Part shown: positions 3,921 through 37,573 of the stretch, in pieces
Numbering within the stretch: the first letter of the stretch is position 1
Layout of the letters: every line of letters starts with the position of its first letter
Virus record (IMG/VR): IMGVR_UViG_3300027608_000020
From: a virus
Lineage: Duplodnaviria > Heunggongvirae > Uroviricota > Caudoviricetes
DNA: 64,000 bases
Direction: 5' to 3' (one strand)
Notes under the pieces: model-generated
Database searches by the model: none
What the model was told of the DNA's origin: nothing
What the model saw: the letters and a program-made list of their open reading frames with translations, nothing else
Program-made: the position numbers and the translations under genes

Positions 3921-4009
3921 GGGAGCCTGTTCCCCTCAGCGGACTGTAAATCCGTTGCCTTTAATTGGGGGGTGGCTGGCGGATGGTTCGATTCCTTCAG
4001 GCTCCACCA
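3921..4009 (+). tRNA. tRNA-Tyr(GTA), long variable arm
   Basis: anticodon arm gcgga-ctGTAaa-tccgt; T-arm GGTTCGATTCC; CCA encoded. Confidence 0.65.
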
Positions 4010-4173: not shown

Positions 4174-4253
4174 ATTAATAAACATATTAGACGTCTGGCT
4201 AGTCCTTGGAGGCTAGTGGAATGTAGTTCTCCGGGCTAGTATGTTTTTTAATT

Positions 4254-4428: not shown

Positions 4429-4504
4429 TGCGGGTAAGGTCTGGTCACTACTCCGGTCTCATAAGCCAGGAGCATCGTTGGTTCGAATCCAACACCCGCT
4501 ACCA
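4429..4504 (+). tRNA. tRNA-Met or Ile2 (CAT)
   Basis: loop ctCATaa; T-arm gttgg-ttcgaat-ccaac; 1:72 U.U mismatch; CCA. Confidence 0.6.
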
Positions 4505-4509
4505 ATTTT

Positions 4510-4569
4510 AGGATCAGTTCAGCAAACTTAAAAACTTTTTTATTATTCAAAAAAACCAAAGTTGATCCT
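4510..4569. repeat. array spacer hairpin, copy 1 (TTTTAGG-atca-GTTCAGCAAA...tgat-CCTGTTGTATTT)
   Basis: 7-bp stem aggatca/tgatcct enclosing an AT-rich loop; flanks conserved with the other copies. Confidence 0.6.
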
Positions 4570-4578
4570 GTTGTATTT

Positions 4579-4652
4579 CCTCTTGTAGTTAAATGGTATA
4601 ACAGTCGGCTGATAACCGGCCATTACAAGTTCGATTCTTGTCGAGAGGACCA
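4579..4652 (+). tRNA. tRNA-Ile(GAT)
   Basis: anticodon arm gtcgg-ctGATaa-ccggc; CCA. Confidence 0.75.
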
Positions 4653-4660
4653 ATTTTTAT

Positions 4661-4738
4661 GTAGGTGTGGCGGAGTGGCCCAACGCAACGGTCTGCAAAA
4701 TCGTAAAACCGTCAGTTCAAATCTGACCACCTACTCCA
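4661..4738 (+). tRNA. tRNA-Cys(GCA)
   Basis: anticodon arm acggt-ctGCAaa-atcgt; T-arm gtcag-ttcaaat-ctgac; acceptor gtaggtg/cacctac; CCA. Confidence 0.65.
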
Positions 4739-4745
4739 AGTTAAT

Positions 4746-4822
4746 GCTCCGGTAGTGTAGCGGTTTATCACGCAACCCTGTCACGGTTGAGGTCACGGGT
4801 TCGATTCCCGTCCGGGGCGCCA
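4746..4822 (+). tRNA. tRNA-Asp(GTC)
   Basis: caacc-ctGTCac-ggttg; close to E. coli tRNA-Asp; CCA. Confidence 0.8.
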
Positions 4823-4827
4823 GTTTT

Positions 4828-4877
4828 AGGATCAGTTCAGCAAACTTAAGCAACTTTCTTTTATCCAGAAACTAAAA
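4828..4877. repeat. array spacer hairpin, copy 2
   Basis: same motif and same stem (aggatca/tgatcct) as copy 1. Confidence 0.6.
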
Positions 4878-4897
4878 AGTTGATCCTGTTGTATTTT

Positions 4898-4972
4898 ACT
4901 CACGTCGTCTAGTGGCTAGGACGCTACCCTTTCAAGGTGGAGAAGCGGGATCGATACCCGTCGTGAGTACCA
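4898..4972 (+). tRNA. tRNA-Glu(TTC)
   Basis: ctacc-ctTTCaa-ggtgg; TCGTCTAG D region as in bacterial tRNA-Glu; CCA. Confidence 0.7.
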
Positions 4973-4978
4973 ATTTTT

Positions 4979-5052
4979 GCCCTTTTAGTTAAATGGTATA
5001 ACAACTGTTTTGTAATCAGTAATTGGCAGTTCGATTCTGTCATGGGGCACCA
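4979..5052 (+). tRNA. tRNA-Thr(TGT)
   Basis: loop ttTGTaa; acceptor gcccttt/atggggc; CCA. Confidence 0.6.
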
Positions 5053-5058
5053 ATTTAT

Positions 5059-5133
5059 GTATCCTTAGTGTTAACGGCAGCACGACAGTCTCCAAAACTG
5101 CTAGTGGGAGTTCAAATCTCTCAGGGTACGCCA
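5059..5133 (+). tRNA. tRNA-Trp(CCA)
   Basis: agtCTCCAAAactg as in E. coli tRNA-Trp; T-arm gggag-ttcaaat-ctctc; CCA. Confidence 0.75.
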
Positions 5134-5138
5134 TTTTT

Positions 5139-5193
5139 AGGTTGCGTTCAGCAAATTCAAAAATTCAACTTTTAATTGAAAAATAAGCAACCT
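5139..5193. repeat. array spacer hairpin, copy 3 (covarying stem aggttgc/gcaacct)
   Basis: same flanks TTTTAGG...GTTCAGCAAA...CCTGTTATTTT with compensatory changes in the 4 inner stem pairs. Confidence 0.6.
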
Positions 5194-5203
5194 GTTATTT
5201 TGT

Positions 5204-5277
5204 TGGGGCATTGTGTAATGGTAGCACAACAGACTTTGACTCTGTTAGTTTAGGTTCGATCCCTAATGCCCCTGCCA
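5204..5277 (+). tRNA. tRNA-Gln(TTG)
   Basis: acaga-ctTTGac-tctgt; weak 1:72 pair and G73 as in bacterial tRNA-Gln; CCA. Confidence 0.75.
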
Positions 5278-5284
5278 GTTTTAT

Positions 5285-5360
5285 CTCTCTTTCGGTTAGC
5301 GGCTATGCCACCTGGTTTGGGGCCAGGATTTCGTGGGTTCGAGTCCCACAGGAGAGACCA
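5285..5360 (+). tRNA. tRNA-Pro(TGG)-like, atypical D-arm
   Basis: cctgg-ttTGGgg-ccagg; T-arm gtggg-ttcgagt-cccac; D region does not fold canonically; canonical Pro(TGG) at 10540. Confidence 0.5.
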
Positions 5361-5368
5361 AGTTCTAT

Positions 5369-5444
5369 GGTGTTAGTAGTGTAGTGGTCTGCACATTGCT
5401 CTGTGAAAGCGATAGTATGGGATCGTTCCCCATCTAACACCCCA
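5369..5444 (+). tRNA. tRNA-His(GTG) with encoded G-1
   Basis: ttgct-ctGTGaa-agcga; extra 5' G opposite C73; CCA. Confidence 0.75.
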
Positions 5445-5455
5445 ATAAGTTTTAT

Positions 5456-5531
5456 GCCAAGATAGCTCATCAGGTAGAGCACCAGTTTGAAGCATTGGGT
5501 GTGGTTGGTTCGAGTCCAACTCTTGGTACCA
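5456..5531 (+). tRNA. tRNA-Phe(GAA)
   Basis: ccagt-ttGAAgc-attgg; GATAGCTCA D region; CCA. Confidence 0.75.
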
Positions 5532-5536
5532 GTTTT

Positions 5537-5647
5537 AGGATAGGTTCAGCAAATAACTTAACTACTTCTCTTGAAAAGAAAAGGAACGGTTCGACTCCGT
5601 AGCCGCAAGGTTTGGTGTAACGGTAGCACTATGTTAAAAACTATCCT
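5537..5647. repeat. array spacer hairpin, copy 4 (stem aggatag/ctatcct), enlarged loop carrying a tRNA T-arm-like fragment
   Basis: TTTTAGGATAGGTTCAGCAAA...CTATCCTGTTATTTT; loop includes ggaacGGTTCGACTCCgt and a D-arm-like tggtgtaacggtagcac that do not assemble into a cloverleaf. Confidence 0.5.
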
Positions 5648-5668
5648 GTTATTTTAAAAGGAAATCAA

Positions 5669-5797
5669 ATGGCAAATGTCAAAAAAGGTAACCTAACAGC
5701 GCCTCCACAATGGTGGAAGCATTTGAAAGATTGGAAACGAGTGTTCTGGAAATCAGAACGCCAAGCACAGAAACGTAACATTAAACAAGGAGAATGA
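5669..5797 (+). CDS. small basic hypothetical protein (42 aa) inside the tRNA array
   Basis: AAAGGAAA RBS then ATG; MANVKKGNLTAPPQWWKHLKDWKRVFWKSERQAQKRNIKQGE. Confidence 0.25.
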   Translation: MANVKKGNLTAPPQWWKHLKDWKRVFWKSERQAQKRNIKQGE

Positions 5798-5883
5798 CAT
5801 GAAACGTTCAGGTAAACGATAGTGTCATCCTAGACCCCCGTATGGTCCTGGATGGCACGTGAAAGACAATTCTTTACGATCCA

Positions 5884-6036: not shown

Positions 6037-6113
6037 ATATAAAAACACACTGGTCTACCGCCACCGAGAGGTAGTTAAAGACAATGACAAGCAACAGCCA
6101 GTGTGTTTCTATA
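6037..6113. repeat. long hairpin H1 (about 19-bp stem tATAAAAACACACTGG / CCAGTGTGTTTCTATa enclosing about 43 nt)
   Basis: near-perfect inverted repeat starting right at the CCA of tRNA-Lys(TTT). Confidence 0.6.
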
Positions 6114-6118
6114 TGGTG

Positions 6119-6192
6119 ACTATATAAAAACACGCTCGCGGCTCCCGGGGCTGGGGGTACGTTGTACGACTACCCTAGAGTGTGTTTCTATA
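6119..6192. repeat. long hairpin H2 (ctATATAAAAACACgctc / gagtGTGTTTCTATATgg), tandem to H1
   Basis: second inverted repeat of the same sequence family with a GC-rich loop; ends at the 5' end of the next tRNA. Confidence 0.55.
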
Positions 6193-6268
6193 TGGTAACG
6201 TAGCATAGTGGCTAATGCACCACCTTCATACGGTGTTTATCGTGAGTTCGAGTCTCACCGTTACTACC
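6193..6268 (+). tRNA. tRNA-Met or Ile2 (CAT)
   Basis: cacc-ttCATac-ggtg; T-arm gtgag-ttcgagt-ctcac; CCA. Confidence 0.65.
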
Positions 6269-6349: not shown

Positions 6350-6582
6350 AGTTTTGTAAGTGTCAGCAAGTGAAGTCACGCTGTCTAGGTTTCTTCGAAG
6401 GACCAAAGCAGTAAAAGGCAAATGGGTTCAACTCCCACCCGCGGGGAACTGCGGAGGTCCGTAACGGGGACTACGCTGGATGGATCCCAAGTGATATCCA
6501 TCGTGCTCGAGGTCAGGCTAGGCGGCCGGTAAGTCCTGAATAAATCTACGATAAATGCGGCGTAGGCTTACAAATTCAATAT

Positions 6583-7005: not shown

Positions 7006-7094
7006 GGGGGGTTATCGGGGCTGGGCCCTGCGCTGTCTTGAAAACAGATGGACTTTTAACGAGGTTGGAGTTCGATTCTACCATCCCCCCGCCA
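7006..7094 (+). tRNA. tRNA-Ser(TGA), class II (imperfect T stem)
   Basis: ctgt-ctTGAaa-acag as in bacterial tRNA-Ser(UGA); long variable arm; 6-bp G-C acceptor; CCA. Confidence 0.5.
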
Positions 7095-7746: not shown

Positions 7747-7803
7747 TTACTTGTCCTGGCCAAGATAATAGAAATAAATAGAATGTTACCAATAAGGCTT
7801 AAC

Positions 7804-8736
7804 ATGAAAAAGAAACTCTGCTTAGTATATCAACTGTTTACAAAGTGCAATATAGGTTGCAAGTATTGTTATAATTATTTTGATCAAGATGTACGTCCTT
7901 TCAATTATTATACATCTAAAGTTGGTAAACTCTTAGAATTATACCATGATGAAACTTGTTTTGTTTTAAATGGTGGTGAGCCCTTGTTGCTTAAAGGATT
8001 TCAACATCTAGTAAATCAAGCGACTGAGAAGGCAAAAACATATACCTATACTAACGGTACTCTAAGCACATGGCACTATAAGAGATTTATTGATAGTCTT
8101 GAGCACAAAGACAAGTTTTACATGACAATCAGTTTACACTTTATGGAAGTGCTAAGAGATAACAAGTTACCGGACAAATACTTTAAAAATATTGAACTTT
8201 TTGCTAAGAATATTCCCAACTTAAAAATCAACCTAGTAGTTGATGAAGAGTTTCAAGGTGAATACTTGCAAGTGATTAGACAAACTATGAGAGAAATTAA
8301 ACAAAGAACTTCTCTTAAGAATGTTAATATTTTGATTGCAGATCACATGTATGAAGATGAATTTAAACTATTACGTGTGTTAAATCAAGATTTTATTGAC
8401 TTTGTTGAAGAAATTGACAGTAATTTTGCTTATAAAAATTGCATGTGGGACAATACCAGACAATCATTAACAGAAATGATTAAAGACATAAAAGAAAATA
8501 TTGTGCTAAAGTTAGCCGGAAAGGATTTTAAGATTCCGTATGAATATGAATTTGGACAAATATTTTTTCTAGAAAGTCCCGAAGGAATGATTGTTCAGGA
8601 ATTTTTCGGTGAAGGACGTCAAGAACATAAAATACCGTTTGATCAATTTGACGCATTTGTTGAAGATATCAAACCAAAAGTACAAAGCAAGCCTCTTAGA
8701 AAAATTACAACATTATCCTCTGTTGGAATAATCTAA
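7804..8736 (+). CDS. radical SAM domain protein (possible QueE-like)
   Basis: CNIGCKYC (CxxxCxxC) near the N-terminus and FVLNGGEPLL SAM-binding motif; start moved to ATG 7804 (TAAGG RBS) because the ORF-track 5' extension overlaps tRNA 7670..7746; no SPASM Cys cluster. Confidence 0.7.
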   Translation: MKKKLCLVYQLFTKCNIGCKYCYNYFDQDVRPFNYYTSKVGKLLELYHDETCFVLNGGEPLLLKGFQHLVNQATEKAKTYTYTNGTLSTWHYKRFIDSLEHKDKFYMTISLHFMEVLRDNKLPDKYFKNIELFAKNIPNLKINLVVDEEFQGEYLQVIRQTMREIKQRTSLKNVNILIADHMYEDEFKLLRVLNQDFIDFVEEIDSNFAYKNCMWDNTRQSLTEMIKDIKENIVLKLAGKDFKIPYEYEFGQIFFLESPEGMIVQEFFGEGRQEHKIPFDQFDAFVEDIKPKVQSKPLRKITTLSSVGII

Positions 8737-9311: not shown

Positions 9312-9364
9312 CTCACGAGTCTCATAAGCTCGAGATCCTGGTTCGATTCCGGGACCCGCAACCA
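9291..9364 (+). tRNA. initiator tRNA-fMet(CAT)
   Basis: CGCGGG...CCCGCAACCA ends identical to E. coli tRNA-fMet, including the C1.A72 mismatch; loop ctCATaa. Confidence 0.75.
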
Positions 9365-9436
9365 GTTTAGGTTAATTACAGCGATTTAAAAATGGCGACT
9401 GCTAGGTCATTAAACTAGTATTAACCTGTTGAATTT

Positions 9437-9520
9437 TGCCCCGGTGGTGTAATGGTAGCCACGCTGGTCTTAGAAGCCAGTGTCGAAAGGCGTGTCGGTT
9501 CGAGTCCGACCTGGGGCACC
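9437..9520 (+). tRNA. tRNA-Leu(TAG), canonical class II (long variable arm)
   Basis: ctggt-ctTAGaa-gccag; long variable arm; T-arm gtcgg-ttcgagt-ccgac; A73-CCA. Confidence 0.7.
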
Positions 9521-11898: not shown

Positions 11899-12393
11899 AT
11901 GGAAATACAAAAACCTAACTTGGCCAAGGGTCGAAACAGCTATGATTCGACCAGCACGGGATCTATAATTCCTTTTTTCAATAGGAATGTTACTCCCTAT
12001 GCCACCGAAGCGGGCGGACCAAAGTTTGAAATGGTCCCTGTTGAAAAACAAAAAGACCTAATGATTAATCATGCTAGGATGTATGCCCAGCAAGAATACG
12101 ATCGCATTATGGAATTAGTTGCTGTTCTAGAAAAACAGGCACTCCAAATCAAACGTAGATTAGAAATTACCGATGCTGTACACGGAGCGGTATATGCTTT
12201 TCAACCGGTAATGGGTAACGCATATTGGATAGTTTGGGATGAAAGAAAGCAACATACTTTGCTTACACAGAACGGACCTCTAGATTGGTCATCTAGTCCT
12301 CCTGTCGATTATAAGTATATGGCGCATGTAAAATACATGGGCGACCATACTTGGTTAGAAATAGACGAAAACGGAAATCCAACAAATGACTAA
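11899..12393 (+). CDS. hypothetical protein
   Basis: 164 aa ORF. Confidence 0.5.
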   Translation: MEIQKPNLAKGRNSYDSTSTGSIIPFFNRNVTPYATEAGGPKFEMVPVEKQKDLMINHARMYAQQEYDRIMELVAVLEKQALQIKRRLEITDAVHGAVYAFQPVMGNAYWIVWDERKQHTLLTQNGPLDWSSSPPVDYKYMAHVKYMGDHTWLEIDENGNPTND

Positions 12394-13180
12394 ACGAATT
12401 TTAATTATGGGCCTGCCGGGCGCAGGCAAAACTTATCTAGCACAACATATTGTAGAACATCTACAAGCAGAAAAGAAACGTGTAGGTTGGCTTAACGCTG
12501 ACGATGTACGCAAAAAGTACGATGACTGGGATTTTAGTGAAGCTGGACGTATTCGTCAAAGTAAACGTATGCGTGATCTAGCAGATGCTATAACAGACAT
12601 TGACTATGTTATCTGTGACTTTGTTGCACCCTTAGTTGAGATGCGTAATAATTTTAAAGCAGATTGGACTGTATGGGTTGACACTATCCGTGAAGGTCGC
12701 TATGCAGATACAAATGCCATGTTTGTAGAACCTGAAGTTTATGACTTCCGTATTACAGAACAAAAAGCAGAAAAGTGGGGTGAGTTTATTGCCGCACATA
12801 TTATAGATAATCGTAAGCGACCCGTATTCGATTGGAAGAAAGAAACAGTACAGATGCTAGGTCGTTGGCAACCGTGGCATGATGGACATCGTGCCTTGTT
12901 TGAACGATTGCTTGCTAAGACTGGTCAAGTTATTATTCAAGTACGTGATGTGCAAGGATGGCAAGGCAGTAATCCTTTTGAAGTAGCTAGAGTTAAAAGT
13001 TTTATCAAACGTGACCTAGATCCCTTATACCAAGGACAGTATGAAATACAAGTTGTTCCTAACATTGTACACATTGGTTGGGGCCGTGGTGTAGGGTATA
13101 CTGCCGGCGAAGAGTCATTTGACGAAACAATAACTGATATTAGTGCTACTAAGATTCGAAAAGAATTAGGACTAAAATGA
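12386..13180 (+). CDS. two-domain protein: P-loop kinase (ribosylnicotinamide-kinase-like) plus HxGH nucleotidyltransferase (NMN adenylyltransferase-like)
   Basis: Walker A GLPGAGKTY at the N-terminus; C-terminal GRWQPWHDGH (cf. NadM/NadR GRFQPFHxGH) ... ISATKIR. Confidence 0.55.
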   Translation: MTKRILIMGLPGAGKTYLAQHIVEHLQAEKKRVGWLNADDVRKKYDDWDFSEAGRIRQSKRMRDLADAITDIDYVICDFVAPLVEMRNNFKADWTVWVDTIREGRYADTNAMFVEPEVYDFRITEQKAEKWGEFIAAHIIDNRKRPVFDWKKETVQMLGRWQPWHDGHRALFERLLAKTGQVIIQVRDVQGWQGSNPFEVARVKSFIKRDLDPLYQGQYEIQVVPNIVHIGWGRGVGYTAGEESFDETITDISATKIRKELGLK

Positions 13181-15442: not shown

Positions 15443-15648
15443 TGGCAATATCAAGAGCAGAACAAAGTGTTACTAAGTATAATCTAGAACAATATCGGTT
15501 GGATCAGGCTCGTTTGGGGAAACAAAGAACCGATGATTACAGCAAAAAGATTGAAGAGCGTAGGCTTGATCAAATCATAGCAGAACGAGTAGCAAGAAAT
15601 ATTCGTTTAGATTTAGACAAAGGTCGACACATTGACATTGAATGTTAA
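15442..15648 (+). CDS. hypothetical protein
   Basis: 68 aa; ATG overlaps the upstream stop. Confidence 0.4.
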   Translation: MAISRAEQSVTKYNLEQYRLDQARLGKQRTDDYSKKIEERRLDQIIAERVARNIRLDLDKGRHIDIEC

Positions 15649-15658
15649 GGAGGCAATT

Positions 15659-16216
15659 ATGCCATGGATTCAAAACGTTGCACTAAGCGACATCAAAAAA
15701 GGGTTTCATTTTGACCCCGGAGTTAATGCCATGCTGATTCAGATTGTGGATCCGCCTGGTGATTTTCCTGTACCAAAATATACGTTCAAAGAAGTTCATC
15801 AGTTTGAATTTTTAGACATTGAAGAAAAGGATTTTGCACTTGAAGAATCTATGCGTTGCAGTCACGAGCAGGCCGCCGAGCTTGTTCGATTATTGCAACA
15901 TGCATTAGAGAATAGGATGAACGTCATTGTGCATTGTGTAGCAGGTGTATGTCGTAGCGGTGCAGTTTGCGAGCTTGGTGTCATGATGGGGTTTGATGAT
16001 ACTGAAGTTTTTCGTAGTCCCAACCTGTTAGTCAAGCATCGCATGATGAAACACCTAGGATGGACCTATGATGAAAATGAGCCGCACTCTATTAATGGGG
16101 TGACACTCGAGTCAGGTTTGATCATTCCTAAGAAAGCAATAGACTGGACCAATGACAATGAGAAAGTTTTTACATTAGCGGCTGAGAGACGAGAACGTAG
16201 AAAATTAATACCTTGA
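15659..16216 (+). CDS. dual-specificity / tyrosine protein phosphatase
   Basis: HCVAGVCRSGA (CX5R P-loop); AGGAGG RBS before ATG 15659. Confidence 0.7.
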   Translation: MPWIQNVALSDIKKGFHFDPGVNAMLIQIVDPPGDFPVPKYTFKEVHQFEFLDIEEKDFALEESMRCSHEQAAELVRLLQHALENRMNVIVHCVAGVCRSGAVCELGVMMGFDDTEVFRSPNLLVKHRMMKHLGWTYDENEPHSINGVTLESGLIIPKKAIDWTNDNEKVFTLAAERRERRKLIP

Positions 16217-16454: not shown

Positions 16455-17060
16455 ATGCCTAGTGTATTTTTAGTTAGCGACACGCATTTCGGACATACCG
16501 GCGTCTGCCGCTTCACTCGTAACGATGGTGTTACAAAATTACGTCCATGGGACTCTGCTGAGGAAATGGACGAAGCAATGGTCAAGGCGTGGAACGAAAG
16601 GGTAAAACCCACTGACAAGGTCTACCATTTAGGTGACGTAGTTATTAACCGTAAGGCTTTAAGTACCTTAGCCCGTTTAAACGGCGACAAGGTTTTGATT
16701 CGCGGCAACCACGACATCTTCCGCGATGACGAGTACAGGATATACTTTAGAGAATTACGTGCATATCATGTTATGGACGGAATGATCTTAAGCCATATTC
16801 CGTTACACTCAGATTCAATGGGGCGATTTGGCACTAACATTCACGGACATACTCATGCAAATCGTGTGAAGAAGGCTCGTGGTGTTGATGCTAGAACTGG
16901 AGAGGTTTTATACAGCGATGAGAACGATGTACGGTATCATTGCGTTTGCGTAGAACAAACTCCGGACTTTGCGCCTATCTTGTTTGAAGATGTTAAAGGG
17001 CGTATTAAGGAAGAAGGCGGTAGTATTGACTTTAGGAACGGAAACGGTCCTACAATGTAA
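16455..17060 (+). CDS. calcineurin-like metallophosphoesterase (Ser/Thr phosphatase-like)
   Basis: DTHFGH, GDVV, GNHD, GHTH metallophosphatase motifs. Confidence 0.7.
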   Translation: MPSVFLVSDTHFGHTGVCRFTRNDGVTKLRPWDSAEEMDEAMVKAWNERVKPTDKVYHLGDVVINRKALSTLARLNGDKVLIRGNHDIFRDDEYRIYFRELRAYHVMDGMILSHIPLHSDSMGRFGTNIHGHTHANRVKKARGVDARTGEVLYSDENDVRYHCVCVEQTPDFAPILFEDVKGRIKEEGGSIDFRNGNGPTM

Positions 17061-19025: not shown

Positions 19026-19379
19026 ATGTCAGACTATCAGTTGGTCTGTTCTTTGATTAAAACTCAAGAACAAGTTGTTTACGATTACACCAAAAATAAA
19101 TGCAGTCTTATATTCACTGTATCCGTAATTAAAAACAAAGTTCGGTCTAAAAAAATCTCCACAGCAGTTTTCAAGTATGATAGAGATAACAAATGGTATC
19201 CGCATCACATTGAAGTATATTCCGGTTACAAACGAACGGGTGTTGCCACGGTGATGTACGACATTGTGCAAAGTGAGATTGACGGAGTACTAGTTCCAAG
19301 CGATGAACAAAGCGATGCGGCCCGAGAGTTTTGGCGTAACAGGTTATTGACAACTCCTCTGAATAAATATATACTGTAG
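19026..19379 (+). CDS. hypothetical protein (possible GNAT-like fold)
   Basis: 117 aa; RTGVATVMYD resembles the GNAT motif A region (weak). Confidence 0.4.
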   Translation: MSDYQLVCSLIKTQEQVVYDYTKNKCSLIFTVSVIKNKVRSKKISTAVFKYDRDNKWYPHHIEVYSGYKRTGVATVMYDIVQSEIDGVLVPSDEQSDAAREFWRNRLLTTPLNKYIL

Positions 19380-19394
19380 GTTATTGCTGTATGA

Positions 19395-19446
19395 AGCAAA
19401 GAGAAAAGTGTTCTGGACGGGGGTGCGAATCCCCCCATCTCCACCA
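19395..19446 (+). ncRNA. ssrA: tmRNA (ssrA) acceptor piece of a permuted two-piece tmRNA gene; 5' boundary uncertain
   Basis: tGGACgggggTGCGAATcccccCATCTCCACCA matches the canonical tmRNA 3' end (GGAC, T-arm, acceptor 3' strand, A73, CCA). Confidence 0.7.
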
Positions 19447-19516
19447 TAAGCATACTAGGTCGTTGAGTTAAAAAGTCGCATGTGATGCGCTCAGACTAAA
19501 ATAGTATGCTTTTGAT

Positions 19517-19722
19517 GGGGATGCATAGTTTCGACAGGGCAACAAGTAAATGAGTGGACAGCTCGGGAAAGCAGAACCCGTAGGATTGGGGTAACTCGGT
19601 CGTAGAAGCACAACACGTAAACGCAAACGACGAACAGTTCGCATTGGCCGCCTAACAGCCGCCTAGGGTAGGAAATACCTCGTAACAGAAACCACCAAGC
19701 CCACTTCGGTGGGCTTTTTTTT
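19517..19722 (+). ncRNA. ssrA: tmRNA coding piece (5' acceptor strand GGGGATG with G3.U70; tag ORF GCAAACGACGAACAGTTCGCATTGGCCGCCTAA = (A)ANDEQFALAA*)
   Basis: GGGGATGCATAGTTTCGACAGGG parallels E. coli GGGGCTGATTCTGGATTCGACGGG; tag 19623..19655 ends in ALAA and stops at UAA; ends at terminator 19697-19722. Confidence 0.7.
19697..19722 (+). terminator. rho-independent terminator (aagcccac-ttcg-gtgggctt plus T8)
   Basis: GC hairpin followed by a T-run. Confidence 0.7.
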
Positions 19723-19754
19723 GACTAAATAGCAGATAACAAGGATAAAATATC

Positions 19755-20560: not shown

Positions 20561-21445
20561 ATGCAAAAAACTTACCGTAGTATTTTTGTGAGTGATGTCC
20601 ACTTGGGTACAAAAGACTGCAAGGCGGAACAACTCAATAATTTTCTCAAGCATAATTCATGCGATACTCTCTACCTCGTTGGTGATATCATCGATGCGTG
20701 GAAGATACAACAAAACAAATGGCGATGGAAACAAAGCCATACCAATGTAGTACGCAGAGTACTGGGACACGCCAAGCGTGGCACTAGAGTTGTATTCATA
20801 GCAGGCAATCATGATGAATTTTTAAGACCTATGATACCATATGGTTTTAGTTTTGGTCTGATTGAGATAAAAAATCAAACAGAACACATAGGCGCAGATG
20901 GTAAGCACTATCTGGTCACACACGGTGACTTATTTGACGGCATAACTCGTCTGGCACCCTGGATAGCTTTCTTAGGAGATAAAGCATATGACATTGTTCT
21001 TACAGTCAACAATAAGTTTAATTGGATTCGTCGCCGCATGGGTTTTGGGTACTTTAGCCTTAGCAAGTATCTTAAGTACAAGGTTAAAAAAGCAGTAGAC
21101 TTCGTGTTCAAGTTTGAAGAGAACTTGGCCAACTACTGTAAGAAGCGCGGCTTTGATGGAGTCATATGTGGACACATACATCACGCTGAGATAAAAGAAA
21201 TCAACGGTGTGATGTACATGAATGACGGCGACTGGGTCGAAAGTTGTACAGCACTTGTGGAGCATCACGATGGCCGTTGGGAGATAATTATATGGACCAA
21301 GGAGAAGGACGATGTGGATAATGTTATTGTTAGCGATACATTCAAACAATCCAAACGACATTCCCGGAAGGATAAGTCTGTTGTTTCCGGACCAGAAATC
21401 GTGCGAATTGACTCTGAAGACAATGTCATATCAACTAAAGTTTGA
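20561..21445 (+). CDS. LpxH-like calcineurin-type metallophosphoesterase
   Basis: SDVHLG, GDIID, GNHDE, THGD, GHIHH, DGDW motifs. Confidence 0.65.
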   Translation: MQKTYRSIFVSDVHLGTKDCKAEQLNNFLKHNSCDTLYLVGDIIDAWKIQQNKWRWKQSHTNVVRRVLGHAKRGTRVVFIAGNHDEFLRPMIPYGFSFGLIEIKNQTEHIGADGKHYLVTHGDLFDGITRLAPWIAFLGDKAYDIVLTVNNKFNWIRRRMGFGYFSLSKYLKYKVKKAVDFVFKFEENLANYCKKRGFDGVICGHIHHAEIKEINGVMYMNDGDWVESCTALVEHHDGRWEIIIWTKEKDDVDNVIVSDTFKQSKRHSRKDKSVVSGPEIVRIDSEDNVISTKV

Positions 21446-29808: not shown

Positions 29809-30990
29809 ATGGTTACTAAACTCAAAACAGCATCAATTGCACTTCGTCAAAACGCAAAACGCGACCACAGTCCAAAGTGGGACGATATTGAAGGGCTCAC
29901 AGCAGAGCAATTTACACGGAGGTTCCGCCAGGCAATGGATTGGTACCGTTTGGAAAGTTCCGGCAAAGAACTAAAGCCAAAGGTTATTGACTGGATGGGT
30001 CGTAACGGATACGACAAGGTCACAATCCAAAGTTTCAAGAAAACAAAAGACAATCGTTGTAGTCCTACTGTAGGTGCTATTGCCGCCTGCTTGATTAAAG
30101 GCATGCCTGAAAAACGTTCTGGGTTTAATCAAGATCGTAATGTTGCAGAATGGTTACGAAATGAAATTACCAATATCATTGTTGAAGGCAAGAACGATAA
30201 AGACGACAGCGAAGCTGTTGTAGATACAAAGCCTGTAATTGCACCGCCGAGTATTCAAGACCGGTTGCGTGAAACCGCAGGAGACATGGGCGAAGAACTT
30301 GACTACGCTATTGACAGTTGGATCACTGATCCAGAAGCATTTGATCCAAAAGCATTCAAAGTTGTAAACTTACTTAAAGGTAAGGGTGCCAAGGCCGCTC
30401 ATGCTCGAATAATCAAACAATACTTCCAACGTGGATTGGATGAGCTTCATGAACTTGCCAGCGGTAATGCAGATGAACAGTTGAGAGAAGCATACAAACA
30501 TGTTAGTCGCAAGAATGTTAAAAAACTAATAGACTTCTACGAAAGTATTGGTGCCGCGTGTGAGCAGATTGCCGCAGAGCAAAAAGTTCTTAAGAAGCCA
30601 CGTGCTACAAAAGTTAAGCCGGCAGAAGAATTGGTTAAGAAAATGAAGTTTATGCTAAGTGATCCTAAACTTGGTATTACTTCAGTGCCACTGGCAGGTC
30701 TAATTGGCGCTCAACTAGCAATTGTTTACAATACTAAGACTCGTAAAATTGGTGTCTATGTTCCTAAAACAAGTGCAGGCCTGGGTGTCAAAGGTACTAG
30801 CATTACGGAGTTTACTGACAAGAGCTTTCAAAAGACTTTGCGTAAGCCAGTAGAACAACTTAAAGAGTTTAAAGAACAAAATACACAGAAGCGTGTTGAG
30901 GCTTGGTTTGTTAAAAATGTTAAGACTACAGAAACATTACTTAACGGACGTATGAGTGAAGATATTGTATTGTTGAAAGTGTACAAATGA
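29809..30990 (+). CDS. hypothetical protein
   Basis: 393 aa. Confidence 0.55.
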   Translation: MVTKLKTASIALRQNAKRDHSPKWDDIEGLTAEQFTRRFRQAMDWYRLESSGKELKPKVIDWMGRNGYDKVTIQSFKKTKDNRCSPTVGAIAACLIKGMPEKRSGFNQDRNVAEWLRNEITNIIVEGKNDKDDSEAVVDTKPVIAPPSIQDRLRETAGDMGEELDYAIDSWITDPEAFDPKAFKVVNLLKGKGAKAAHARIIKQYFQRGLDELHELASGNADEQLREAYKHVSRKNVKKLIDFYESIGAACEQIAAEQKVLKKPRATKVKPAEELVKKMKFMLSDPKLGITSVPLAGLIGAQLAIVYNTKTRKIGVYVPKTSAGLGVKGTSITEFTDKSFQKTLRKPVEQLKEFKEQNTQKRVEAWFVKNVKTTETLLNGRMSEDIVLLKVYK

Positions 30991-37123: not shown

Positions 37124-37573
37124 ATGGCAAAATATTTCTCAACAAAACATTACGGACACAACATTGGTCTGTCGGCGGTATTTCGTCAACCTAATGCAGA
37201 TCACAGTCATTGTCACCTGCTACACGGTTACAGTCTAGCGTTCACATTCACATTTGGGTGTGACTCATTAGACAATAAAAACTGGGCGGTGGATTTTGGC
37301 GGACTCAAACCGCTGAAAGCATGGCTAGAAGATAACTTTGATCACAAGATGGCCTTAGACAAGACAGATCCCCATCTGGCCAAGTTTCGAGAACTAGAAG
37401 CATTAGACCTAGCAGAGATCCGTATCTTTGACGGAGTTGGTGTAGAGAAGTTTGCTGAACATGCTTTTAACTTTGCTGACCAATTGATACGTGAAAAGAG
37501 TGGTGGTCGTTGTCATTGTGTACGAGTTGAGTGTGCTGAACACGGCGCCAATTCGGCAACTTACGAAGCTTAA
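37124..37573 (+). CDS. queD: 6-pyruvoyl-tetrahydropterin synthase family protein (QueD/PTPS)
   Basis: [10 protein letters not shown] (CxxxHGH) motif; size about 150 aa. Confidence 0.65.

Follow-up and report, generated by a model that had tools for sequence, protein, structure and literature searches.

Four repeated elements in a transfer RNA (tRNA) array of the viral record IMGVR_UViG_3300027608_000020 (Caudoviricetes) are, on comparative sequence evidence, real members of a large and uncatalogued family of predicted phage small RNAs. The window, which means the whole 64-kb stretch analysed here, carries this dense array on its plus strand, with 37 tRNA genes and a permuted transfer-messenger RNA (tmRNA). 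The repeats are probably genes for Y-RNA-like partners of a phage Ro60-like protein and would be released from the tRNA transcript, a reading that is favoured here with moderate confidence. The original prediction, made from the letters of the window, had offered processing signals, small RNAs or miniature mobile elements as possible functions, and the evidence favours small RNAs among the three. Both the elements and their CAGCAA handle appear to be new, as no definition of either was found in the literature searched. At present the elements are unannotated, or labelled as tRNAs, pseudo-tRNAs or hypothetical open reading frames (ORFs).

A pattern search of the window with TTTTAGG-N4-GTTCAGCAAA gave exactly four exact matches, all on the plus strand, with starts at 4506, 4824, 5135 and 5533, and each copy continues to N4'-CCTGTTRT. 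When up to three mismatches were allowed in the 21-nucleotide (nt) 5' pattern, five window matches were obtained against 0.41 expected. The four exact ones are the copies, and none of 100 shuffled windows had five or more matches. The inner N4/N4' pairs are ATCA/TGAT in two copies, TTGC/GCAA in one and ATAG/CTAT in one, and CCTGTT follows each N4'. The loops of copies 1–4 are 46, 46, 41 and 97 nt long, and each copy occupies a whole inter-tRNA spacer. The four copies with fixed AGG/CCT and a complementary inner 4 base pairs (bp), as first described in the original prediction, were thus borne out by the window pattern searches. Minimum free energy (MFE) folding recovered the terminal stem in every copy, with energies no better than those of shuffles (z −0.3 to −1.05). 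Since single-copy MFE is not significant, the structure claims made below rest on covariation and comparison.

To look beyond the window, IMG/VR was scanned with the 5' half alone (TTTTAGGNNNNGTTCAGCAAA), which gave at least 132 sites in at least 119 loci. Among the 132 viral sites listed, 128 had the exact reverse complement of their own N4 plus CCT within 260 nt, with 23 different N4. The same 5' pattern was found at 89 sites in 596 Gb of bacterial and archaeal genomes, which is about the chance number for 17 fixed bases, and the complementary 3' half was present at 2 of these 89 sites. One of the two is on a phage-like contig (L174) in a Neisseriaceae metagenome-assembled genome (MAG), with an interior, or cargo, as in window copy 4. 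The difference between 128/132 viral and 2/89 genomic sites indicates that the stem is real, that its pairing is under selection and that the element is essentially viral. The covarying terminal hairpin that the original prediction had proposed is therefore real.

An alignment of 42 non-redundant short elements (A2) was used to build a covariance model (CM), R1. This model detected window copies 1–3 at 76–84 bits together with a fifth copy, and gave 261 matches in 100 viral loci. Megablast and blastn searches of the region against GenBank phages returned tRNA matches only and no close relative of the region. The two refuting conditions set out in the original prediction came out in favour of the finding, as the additional copies in viral contigs keep the stem complementarity and the elements were found in many related phages. 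In the window, Rfam at gathering thresholds reported only tRNAs and the tmRNA, and self-cleaving ribozymes, riboswitches and CRISPR repeats (Rfam 15) gave no match beyond noise at E ≤ 10.

The handle was defined further by a looser scan, which required only a 7-bp stem, three nucleotides and CAGCAA. In this way 496 unique elements were collected, and their stems use 148 different strands. In about 80% of the elements the stem is preceded by UUUU and followed by G-U-U, though neither had been demanded, and each of the six positions ahead of the 3' strand is A in about 60–70%. The handle consensus is (CCA-R)-UUUU / AGG-N4 / (G/U)UU / CAGCAA / A ... AAAAAA / N4'-CCU / GUU-R-U-W-UU. In this layout the 7-bp stem joins the 5' end to the 3' end, and the single-stranded NNN-CAGCAA-N is located directly 3' of the 5' strand. 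The A-rich connector sits 5' of the 3' strand, and the 5' UUUU and the 3' GUU-R-U-rich tail flank the stem. Element sizes fall into three groups of about 55–70, 90–120 and 140–280 nt. The element strand is that of the nearest tRNA in 262 of 267 cases. About half of the elements abut a tRNA on each side and the others are in tandem to one another, and the orthologous spacers of related phages show clean presence or absence of elements.

The elements are strongly linked to one protein gene. ORF clustering over the 119 loci listed showed that the commonest neighbour is a protein of about 475 amino acids with DUF2828 and DUF7788, which was found in 37 loci. In 34 of these 37 loci, one to four tandem elements are located immediately upstream of its gene, on the same strand and inside the tRNA array. 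To remove the selection bias, loci were fetched by the protein alone, and 74 of them had enough upstream sequence. At least one strict sense-strand element was present within 700 nt upstream in 72 of these 74 loci, and antisense elements were found in none. The last element ends 17–26 nt before the DUF2828 start codon in 38 of the 72 loci. One NCBI contig found in this way (L120) carries elements of 224, 114, 116 and 61 nt, followed by the gene.

The DUF2828/DUF7788 protein resembles Ro60. A PDB search with a shallow profile of the protein found nothing. With a profile of 57 diverse homologues, the best PDB matches were Xenopus and human Ro60 (E 0.03–0.07), and phiLo Ro60 was matched at E 0.4. 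The hhalign comparison with human Ro60 gave E 0.0014 over 157 columns, and Pfam showed a faint vWA_Ro60 match. The AlphaFold2 model had a predicted local distance difference test score (pLDDT) of 89.4 and a predicted template modelling (TM) score of 0.89. When this model was searched against PDB by Foldseek, the top nine matches were all Ro60/Rsr, full length, with E 4e-8 to 4e-6 and probability 1.00. Eukaryotic Ro60 chains had TM scores of about 0.55–0.6 and the Rsr chain of Deinococcus, 2nvo, had 0.38, and the matches that followed Ro60/Rsr were vWA-only with E ≥ 3e-3. The comparison of the predicted model is decisive in identifying the protein as a structural homologue of Ro60, and the sequence evidence is weak but specific. 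The protein belongs to PHROG 850, 'RNA-binding protein', and mycobacteriophage depositors labelled it 'Ro-like RNA binding protein'. At least 702 GenBank phage records contain it, as do thousands of metagenomic clusters. The DUF2828 branch has also been reported in plants and mimivirus-like sequences (bioRxiv 10.1101/033464).

The same pairing was found in cultivated phages. In Felixounavirus HY02, four elements are located in the tRNA array next to the Ro-like gene, on its downstream side. Their handle is AGACC(AA/GT)-N3-CAGCAA-N ... (TT/AC)GGTCT-GG, and one of them has a permuted tRNA-like cargo. This region is kept in 260 records, where its only annotations are tRNAs and hypothetical proteins. 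Listeria phage A511 carries three elements that follow a promoter-like TTGACA and immediately precede gp57, its DUF2828 gene. The three read AGGAATC-TAA-CAGCAA, AGAGAGC-TAA-CAGCAA and AGGAAGC-ACA-CAGCAA, and all are closed by the complementary strand and then GU. As handle and protein are paired in phages of both Proteobacteria and Firmicutes, the pairing cannot be explained by the synteny of freshwater phages. Earlier reports concern such genes. Gp130 of phage Bas63 is Ro60-like, adjoins tRNAs and is needed against the ppl defence, and the authors guessed that Y RNAs were among the 'tRNAs' (PMC11482910). In CKA15, a P100-like phage of Listeria, transcription peaks in regions upstream of the Ro-like gene, at a distance of less than 2 kb (PMC12282133). 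The Ro60-like CKA15_055 was also seen by mass spectrometry in purified virions (PMC12282133), which hints that the ribonucleoprotein (RNP) or the protein may be packaged. In Citrobacter phage Ci1 (OR515478.1; L290 4391–4625), a 114-nt 'tRNA-Pseudo' is located downstream of the DUF2828 gene, and Rfam calls it a 115-nt tRNA. It may be another tRNA-like partner RNA that was mis-annotated as a tRNA.

The cargo of the elements is tRNA-like in parts. In alignment A2, the central hairpin, which was not a selection criterion, is paired in 90% and has double changes at 4 of 5 pairs; its covariation score was reached by none of 500 shuffles. Of 170 unique short elements, 128 have a 5-bp stem with a 7-nt loop. 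The loops show the signature expected of anticodon loops, as their second position is U in 91% and their sixth is A in 75%. CUUUUAA (Lys-UUU-like) is the most frequent of them, with 33 of 128, and UGU, UAU and UCU rank next. Copies 1–3 and 5 of the window have the anticodon-arm-like hairpin only, copies 1–3 being without T and D arms, and copy 3 is a clean example. Among the medium elements, those of loci L012, L016, L017 and L070 have D, anticodon and T arms in normal order without a proper acceptor stem, and others, including window copy 4, have the arms in permuted order.

Copy 4 was compared with its homologues. From ten copy-4 homologues, including that of E. coli phage HY02, RNAalifold predicted the P1, V, T, capped acceptor-like and D helices unguided. 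Compensatory changes were found in 16 of 29 predicted pairs, the T-arm loop GGUUCGAWUCC is invariant, and the capped acceptor-like hairpin is variable among the ten. The T-arm-like and D-arm-like segments noted earlier in the 97-nt loop are indeed present, and what had been taken for captured fragments is an ordered, covarying and permuted tRNA-like module that is also present in an E. coli phage. By its predicted structure, copy 4 is a circularly permuted tRNA-like module with the topology of YrlA. It differs from a tRNA in having a capped 4-bp stub for an acceptor, with the ends of the RNA on the opposite side of the fold. ARAGORN and the Rfam tRNA model (RF00005) called none of the copies as a tRNA.

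The window copies have the following positions, all on the plus strand. Copy 1 (4506–4578, short type; CM R1 76.3 bits, E 1e-15) is located between tRNA-Met, which ends at 4504, and tRNA-Ile, which starts at 4579. It is composed of the UUUU leader (4506–4509), P1 (4510–4516 with 4563–4569, AGGATCA/TGATCCT), GTTCAGCAAA (4517–4526), a central U6/A6 hairpin at about 4535–4553 and the tail GTTGTATTT (4570–4578). Copy 2 (4824–4897, short type; CM R1 77.9 bits) follows tRNA-Asp, ending at 4822, and precedes tRNA-Glu, starting at 4898. Its P1 is formed by 4828–4834 and 4881–4887 (AGGATCA/TGATCCT), with GTTCAGCAAA at 4835–4844 and a central hairpin CUUUC...GAAA(C). Copy 3 (5135–5203, short type; CM R1 83.5 bits), which reached a sub-threshold 30.9 bits with Rfam RF01414, lies between tRNA-Trp, ending at 5133, and tRNA-Gln, starting at 5204. 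P1 is at 5139–5145 with 5187–5193 (AGGTTGC/GCAACCT) and GTTCAGCAAA at 5146–5155, and the hairpin at 5164–5180 (UUCAA-CUUUUAA-UUGAA) is anticodon-arm-like, with a 5-bp stem, a 7-nt loop and U33/A37-like positions. Copy 4 (5533–5655, long type) is preceded by tRNA-Phe, which ends at 5531. Its P1 (5537–5543 with 5641–5647, AGGATAG/CTATCCT) and GTTCAGCAAA (5544–5553) enclose a cargo with a V hairpin at about 5565–5584, a T arm at 5586–5600 (ACGG-UUCGACU-CCGU), a GNRA-capped acceptor-like stub at 5601–5612 (AGCC-GCAA-GGUU) and a D arm at 5615–5629 (GUGU-AACGGUA-GCAC). On its 3' side a small ORF (5670–5798, MANVKKGNLTAPPQWWKHLKDWKRVFWKSERQAQKRNIKQGE) starts 22 nt past the stem, a gap that equals the spacing between the last element and the Ro60-like gene elsewhere.

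A fifth, diverged copy, absent from the original prediction, was found on the plus strand at 9365–9436 (CM 24.5 bits, E 0.004), between tRNA-Met (ending at 9364) and tRNA-Leu (starting at 9438). It reads GTTTAGGTTAA-TTACAGCGAT...TTAACCTGTTGA, with P1 at 9369–9375 and 9421–9427 (AGGTTAA/TTAACCT), the motif TTACAGCGAT at 9376–9385 in place of GTTCAGCAAA, and the tail GTTGAATTT. Its cargo subtype recurs in locus L007. A larger relative of about 220 nt, also missing from that description, is located on the plus strand at 6354–6573, between tRNA-Arg and tRNA-Glu. Its handle is UUGUAAG-UGU-CAGCAA-G ... CUUACAA-AUUCAAU, and the cargo of about 200 nt includes a T-arm-like GGGUUCAACUCCC. This element is kept in at least 7 other viral loci. 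Its membership in the family is tentative, because the stem is invariant and hence without covariation.

Some larger cargos were also observed elsewhere. Among the elements upstream of the Ro60-like gene, the first is often about 220 nt long (L011, L022, L045, L084, L111 and L120, for example L120 1058–1281), and these elements have a conserved and clearly structured cargo (...GGAGGGACCACCGUAAGGUG...GGAAAGACAG...) without Rfam match. Another cargo class of 100–190 nt (L003, L019, L021, L044, L059, L072 and others) ends with GAGUUUCGAWUUCUC, a T-arm-like hairpin, and then AAAAAGUAGAMAA.

Several other ideas about the copies were dropped. A scan for sigma-70 promoters and terminators found none at the copies, and a −35/−10 reading by eye (TTCAGC-17-TATTAT) fits copy 1 only. 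Inspection by eye gave no consistent fit to integron attC sites or K-turns, to a P1 lengthened by the N3 triplet or to base pairing between CAGCAA and the 3' tail. The complement TTTGCTGAAC, considered as an mRNA target, occurs three times in 37451–37541, but inside a QueD-like ORF, and this looks coincidental.

The elements were compared with known RNA classes. The closest architecture is that of YrlA, a tRNA-mimicking bacterial Y RNA in which V-T-AS-D modules are closed by a terminal stem (PMC4201824). Like YrlA (RF02553), the elements have a terminal stem formed by the 5' and 3' ends, here the 7-bp P1 with extensive covariation. The order of V, T, acceptor-like and D parts is present in copy 4 and in elements of about 115 nt. 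In related phages the elements adjoin a Ro60-type gene as YrlA does, often as a tandem set, and YrlA is processed from one precursor, as the elements would be. The 116-nt element of L120, a homologue of copy 4, aligned over its full length with the Rfam YrlA model, with T, AS and D aligned, at 32.6 bits, which is below the threshold of 69 bits; no family member reaches the Rfam threshold. In contrast to YrlA, most members here are 55–75 nt long, have an anticodon-arm-like hairpin only and are dispersed in tRNA arrays, and the partner belongs to the divergent DUF2828/DUF7788 branch rather than being an annotated TROVE protein. On these sequence comparisons the elements appear Y-RNA/YrlA-like but fail membership of RF02553 by score and by the Ro-binding helix.

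The Thermus phage phiLo encodes a Ro60 that binds two upstream Y-like RNAs (Yrl1 and Yrl2) and forms complexes with PNPase (PMC12135203). Similarly to the elements, these RNAs are encoded by a phage in more than one copy and precede, on the same strand, the gene for its Ro60 homologue. However, they are defined by a CGAA motif in a large internal loop (PMC12135203), the CAGCAA handle is unreported for them, and their protein is a TROVE-annotated Ro60 that the DUF2828 profile matches weakly (E 0.4).

A second resemblance is to the Class I RNAs of Dictyostelium (RF01414; PMC7919456). In both, the architecture comprises a terminal stem that is short and opens with G, a conserved motif, single-stranded, just 3' of its 5' strand (CCUUACAGCAA versus NUUACAGCAA / GUUCAGCAAA), an AU-rich variable region that is often a hairpin, a 3' end ...C-UG and a length of 42–65 nt. 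The motif that the elements and Class I RNAs have in common beside the 5' strand is (C)UUACAGCAA(U) (PMC7919456), with 7–10 of 11 motif positions alike. The Class I model is the best non-tRNA Rfam match of the short elements and aligns over the full length, with scores of 24.3 and 30.9 bits in the window and 27.2–34.5 bits for 7 elements from 9 loci, all below the threshold of 41.5 bits. In contrast to the elements, which are in phage tRNA arrays, Class I RNAs are eukaryotic, Pol-transcribed from a DUSE promoter and reported only in Dictyostelia (PMC7919456). Their known binder is the RRM protein Rnp1A, and they have no known link to Ro60-like proteins. The resemblance is a lead, judged from sequence, and not membership, and it may be convergence in a very simple AU-rich design. 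We consider it improbable that the handle is a universal recognition element of the DUF2828 Ro60-like branch, with Class I RNAs (terminal stem, CUUACAGCAAU, 3' CUG) as the same class or as descendants. If this were true, Class I RNAs would gain a candidate protein partner and a Y-RNA-like mode of action, and an ancient or horizontally transferred RNP would be common to phages, giant viruses and eukaryotes.

A possible mechanism can be proposed for Y-RNA-like partners of the Ro60-like protein. The RNAs would be transcribed within the tRNA polycistron and released by the enzymes that excise the flanking tRNAs, with RNase P cutting at the 5' end of the downstream tRNA and RNase E/Z plus trimming acting at the 3' end of the upstream tRNA. 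Non-tRNA RNAs are found in such a setting in other systems, namely the E. coli 3'ETS-leuZ sponge in a tRNA transcript and the stable RNAs C and D in the tRNA cluster of phage T4. These RNAs are likewise embedded in tRNA operons and released by the tRNA-processing machinery, but they share no sequence or structure with the elements and are not tRNA mimics with a conserved handle. The handle could be the docking site for the ring-shaped Ro60-like protein, and through its tRNA-mimicking cargo the RNA could show a second partner an anticodon arm or a tRNA elbow. This partner might be an exonuclease such as PNPase, an enzyme of tRNA repair or modification, or a host defence nuclease that targets tRNAs. 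During infection the RNA may then take part in RNA quality control or counter-defence, as a tether, gate or decoy.

Several observations weigh against this assignment. The CAGCAA elements are known here from sequence and predicted structure, and their linkage to the protein gene could reflect cis-regulation of that gene. No DUF2828 or TROVE gene was found in the 64-kb window by tblastn, hhalign, Pfam on about 30 ORFs and a six-frame hidden Markov model search (best E 0.78), so the partner would be elsewhere in the genome, host-encoded or absent. Window ORF 29809–30990 was considered as a divergent Ro-like gene and rejected (tblastn E 0.04, hhalign probability 0.2%). The loci come from related phages, and synteny inflates the counts, although the recurrence in Proteobacteria and Firmicutes phages argues against pure synteny. 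As to the RNA, the Rfam YrlA model gave no match to the window copies even at E ≤ 10, its terminal stems do not align to the handle of the 116-nt L120 element, and the handle (AGG-N4 + NNNCAGCAAN) is unlike the canonical Ro-binding helix. The tRNA mimicry of copies 1–3 depends on an anticodon-arm-like hairpin in AU-rich sequence, and the T stem of copy 4 has 4 clean pairs only.

Other explanations were weighed against the same data. The elements could be cis-acting processing or insulator modules of the tRNA polycistron, in which a U-rich-flanked hairpin guides RNase E/P/Z or protects the tRNAs and is functionless once released. They fill the inter-tRNA spacers exactly, have RUUUUA-type flanks as at ordinary junctions, and about half of them abut tRNAs on each side. 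But most tRNA junctions in the window and in the other loci have no element; in the window, elements are present at 5–6 of about 30 tRNA junctions, and the others are 5–10-nt spacers. Elements also occur in tandem without a tRNA between them, directly upstream of a protein gene and, in A511, behind a promoter-like sequence of their own, and a conserved, covarying tRNA-like cargo is needless for a cleavage signal. To our knowledge, CAGCAA, which is invariant here, is not a known RNase E/P determinant. The processing signals of the original prediction are thus not favoured, and such modules are unlikely. Alternatively, the RNAs may be anticodon-arm decoys or sponges that work without a Ro-like protein and titrate host anticodon nucleases or tRNA-binding defence or modification proteins. 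The short cargos resemble anticodon stem-loops, with CUUUUAA as the commonest loop, and the window has elements and no Ro-like gene. Phage tRNA arrays have also been associated with the evasion of tRNA-cleaving defences (PMC7824862), which suits decoys. This view has a low probability, since it leaves the invariant handle and the tight linkage to the Ro60-like gene unexplained, and the loop preferences may partly reflect AU-rich composition.

At the DNA level, the repeats could be miniature mobile elements or recombination cassettes that enter AT-rich tRNA spacers with variable cargo. Consistent with this are the presence/absence polymorphism at orthologous spacers of related phages, the conserved ends with variable interiors, and the frequent HNH and GIY-YIG homing endonuclease genes in the same arrays. 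However, the tRNA genes of these arrays show a like gain and loss, and the orientation of the elements is fixed relative to transcription (262/267). The arms vary and yet stay paired (148 different 5' strands), which indicates selection on a folded strand and not on a transposase site. No consistent target-site duplication was seen at the compared spacers and no transposase among the neighbours. The suggestion of miniature mobile elements with captured tRNA fragments was therefore not favoured, and mobile cassettes are quite unlikely. It is very unlikely that the elements are mainly translational or autoregulatory operators, through which the Ro-like protein would bind the handle to control the downstream gene, with the dispersed copies as by-products. 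The 17–26-nt distance to the DUF2828 start in 38 of 72 loci would suit such operators, as would the small ORF 22 nt after copy 4, but copies 1–3 and 5 have tRNAs and not ORFs downstream, the HY02 elements are downstream of the gene, and tandem sets with elaborate cargos would be unnecessary. Decayed tRNA pseudogenes or chance AT-rich palindromes are scarcely credible. The cargo is tRNA-derived and the thermodynamic z-scores are unremarkable, but chance is excluded by the contrast between viral and prokaryotic genomes, and pseudogenes would not keep a covarying non-tRNA handle across Proteobacteria and Firmicutes phages.

The assignment as Y-RNA-like partners of the Ro60-like protein bears on a wider question. 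Particles of Ro60 and Y RNA have been described in animals, in some bacteria and in one Thermus phage. No RNA partner, by contrast, had been defined for the divergent Ro60-like proteins of the DUF2828 branch, and the CAGCAA family supplies a searchable candidate. Two groups had guessed Y RNAs near phage Ro-like genes. The candidate is present in tractable phages, among them FelixO1-like coliphages and Listeria A511/P100, where the Ro60-like gene is tied to counter-defence (PMC11482910) and very abundant unexplained transcripts are nearby (PMC12282133). What phage Ro60-like proteins bind and do thus becomes a directly testable question, and phage annotation would improve through the handle motif and the modular tRNA-mimic architecture.

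Other features were observed in and around the tRNA array. At 6038–6193, between tRNA-Lys(ttt) and tRNA-Met, another hairpin of the spacers (ATATAAAAACAC...GTGTGTTTCTATATGGT; stem about 11 bp), which has no CAGCAA handle, is present in two adjacent copies. In the 80-nt spacer between tRNA-Asn and tRNA-Ala (4174–4253), neither an element nor a tRNA could be recognised. ARAGORN missed two genes, at 3921–4006 and 7006–7090, that are tRNA-like and have long variable arms; with the Rfam tRNA-Sec model they reached 29.3 and 43.2 bits, both sub-threshold. The one at 3921–4006 is probably tRNA-Tyr(GUA) because of its CUGUAAA loop. The tmRNA at 19333–19746 is circularly permuted (two-piece type), has the tag ANDEQFALAA and matches the betaproteobacterial model. 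This suggests a betaproteobacterial host, which fits the Neisseriaceae MAG contig L174 with the same element. A 411-amino-acid ORF at 749–1984 matches the RuBisCO large-chain catalytic domain (Pfam E 3e-35), which is unusual for a phage, and its product may be a RuBisCO-like protein. Enzyme genes are located in or near the tRNA array at 7798–8736, 12386–13180, 15632–16216, 16455–17060, 20561–21445 and 37124–37573. They encode a radical-SAM enzyme, a P-loop kinase (APS-kinase/KTI12/AAA_33-like), a dual-specificity phosphatase, two metallophosphoesterases and the QueD-like ORF. As a set these genes hint at RNA end-healing and 7-deazaguanine metabolism, and members of these kinase and phosphatase families are again found close to the elements at other loci.

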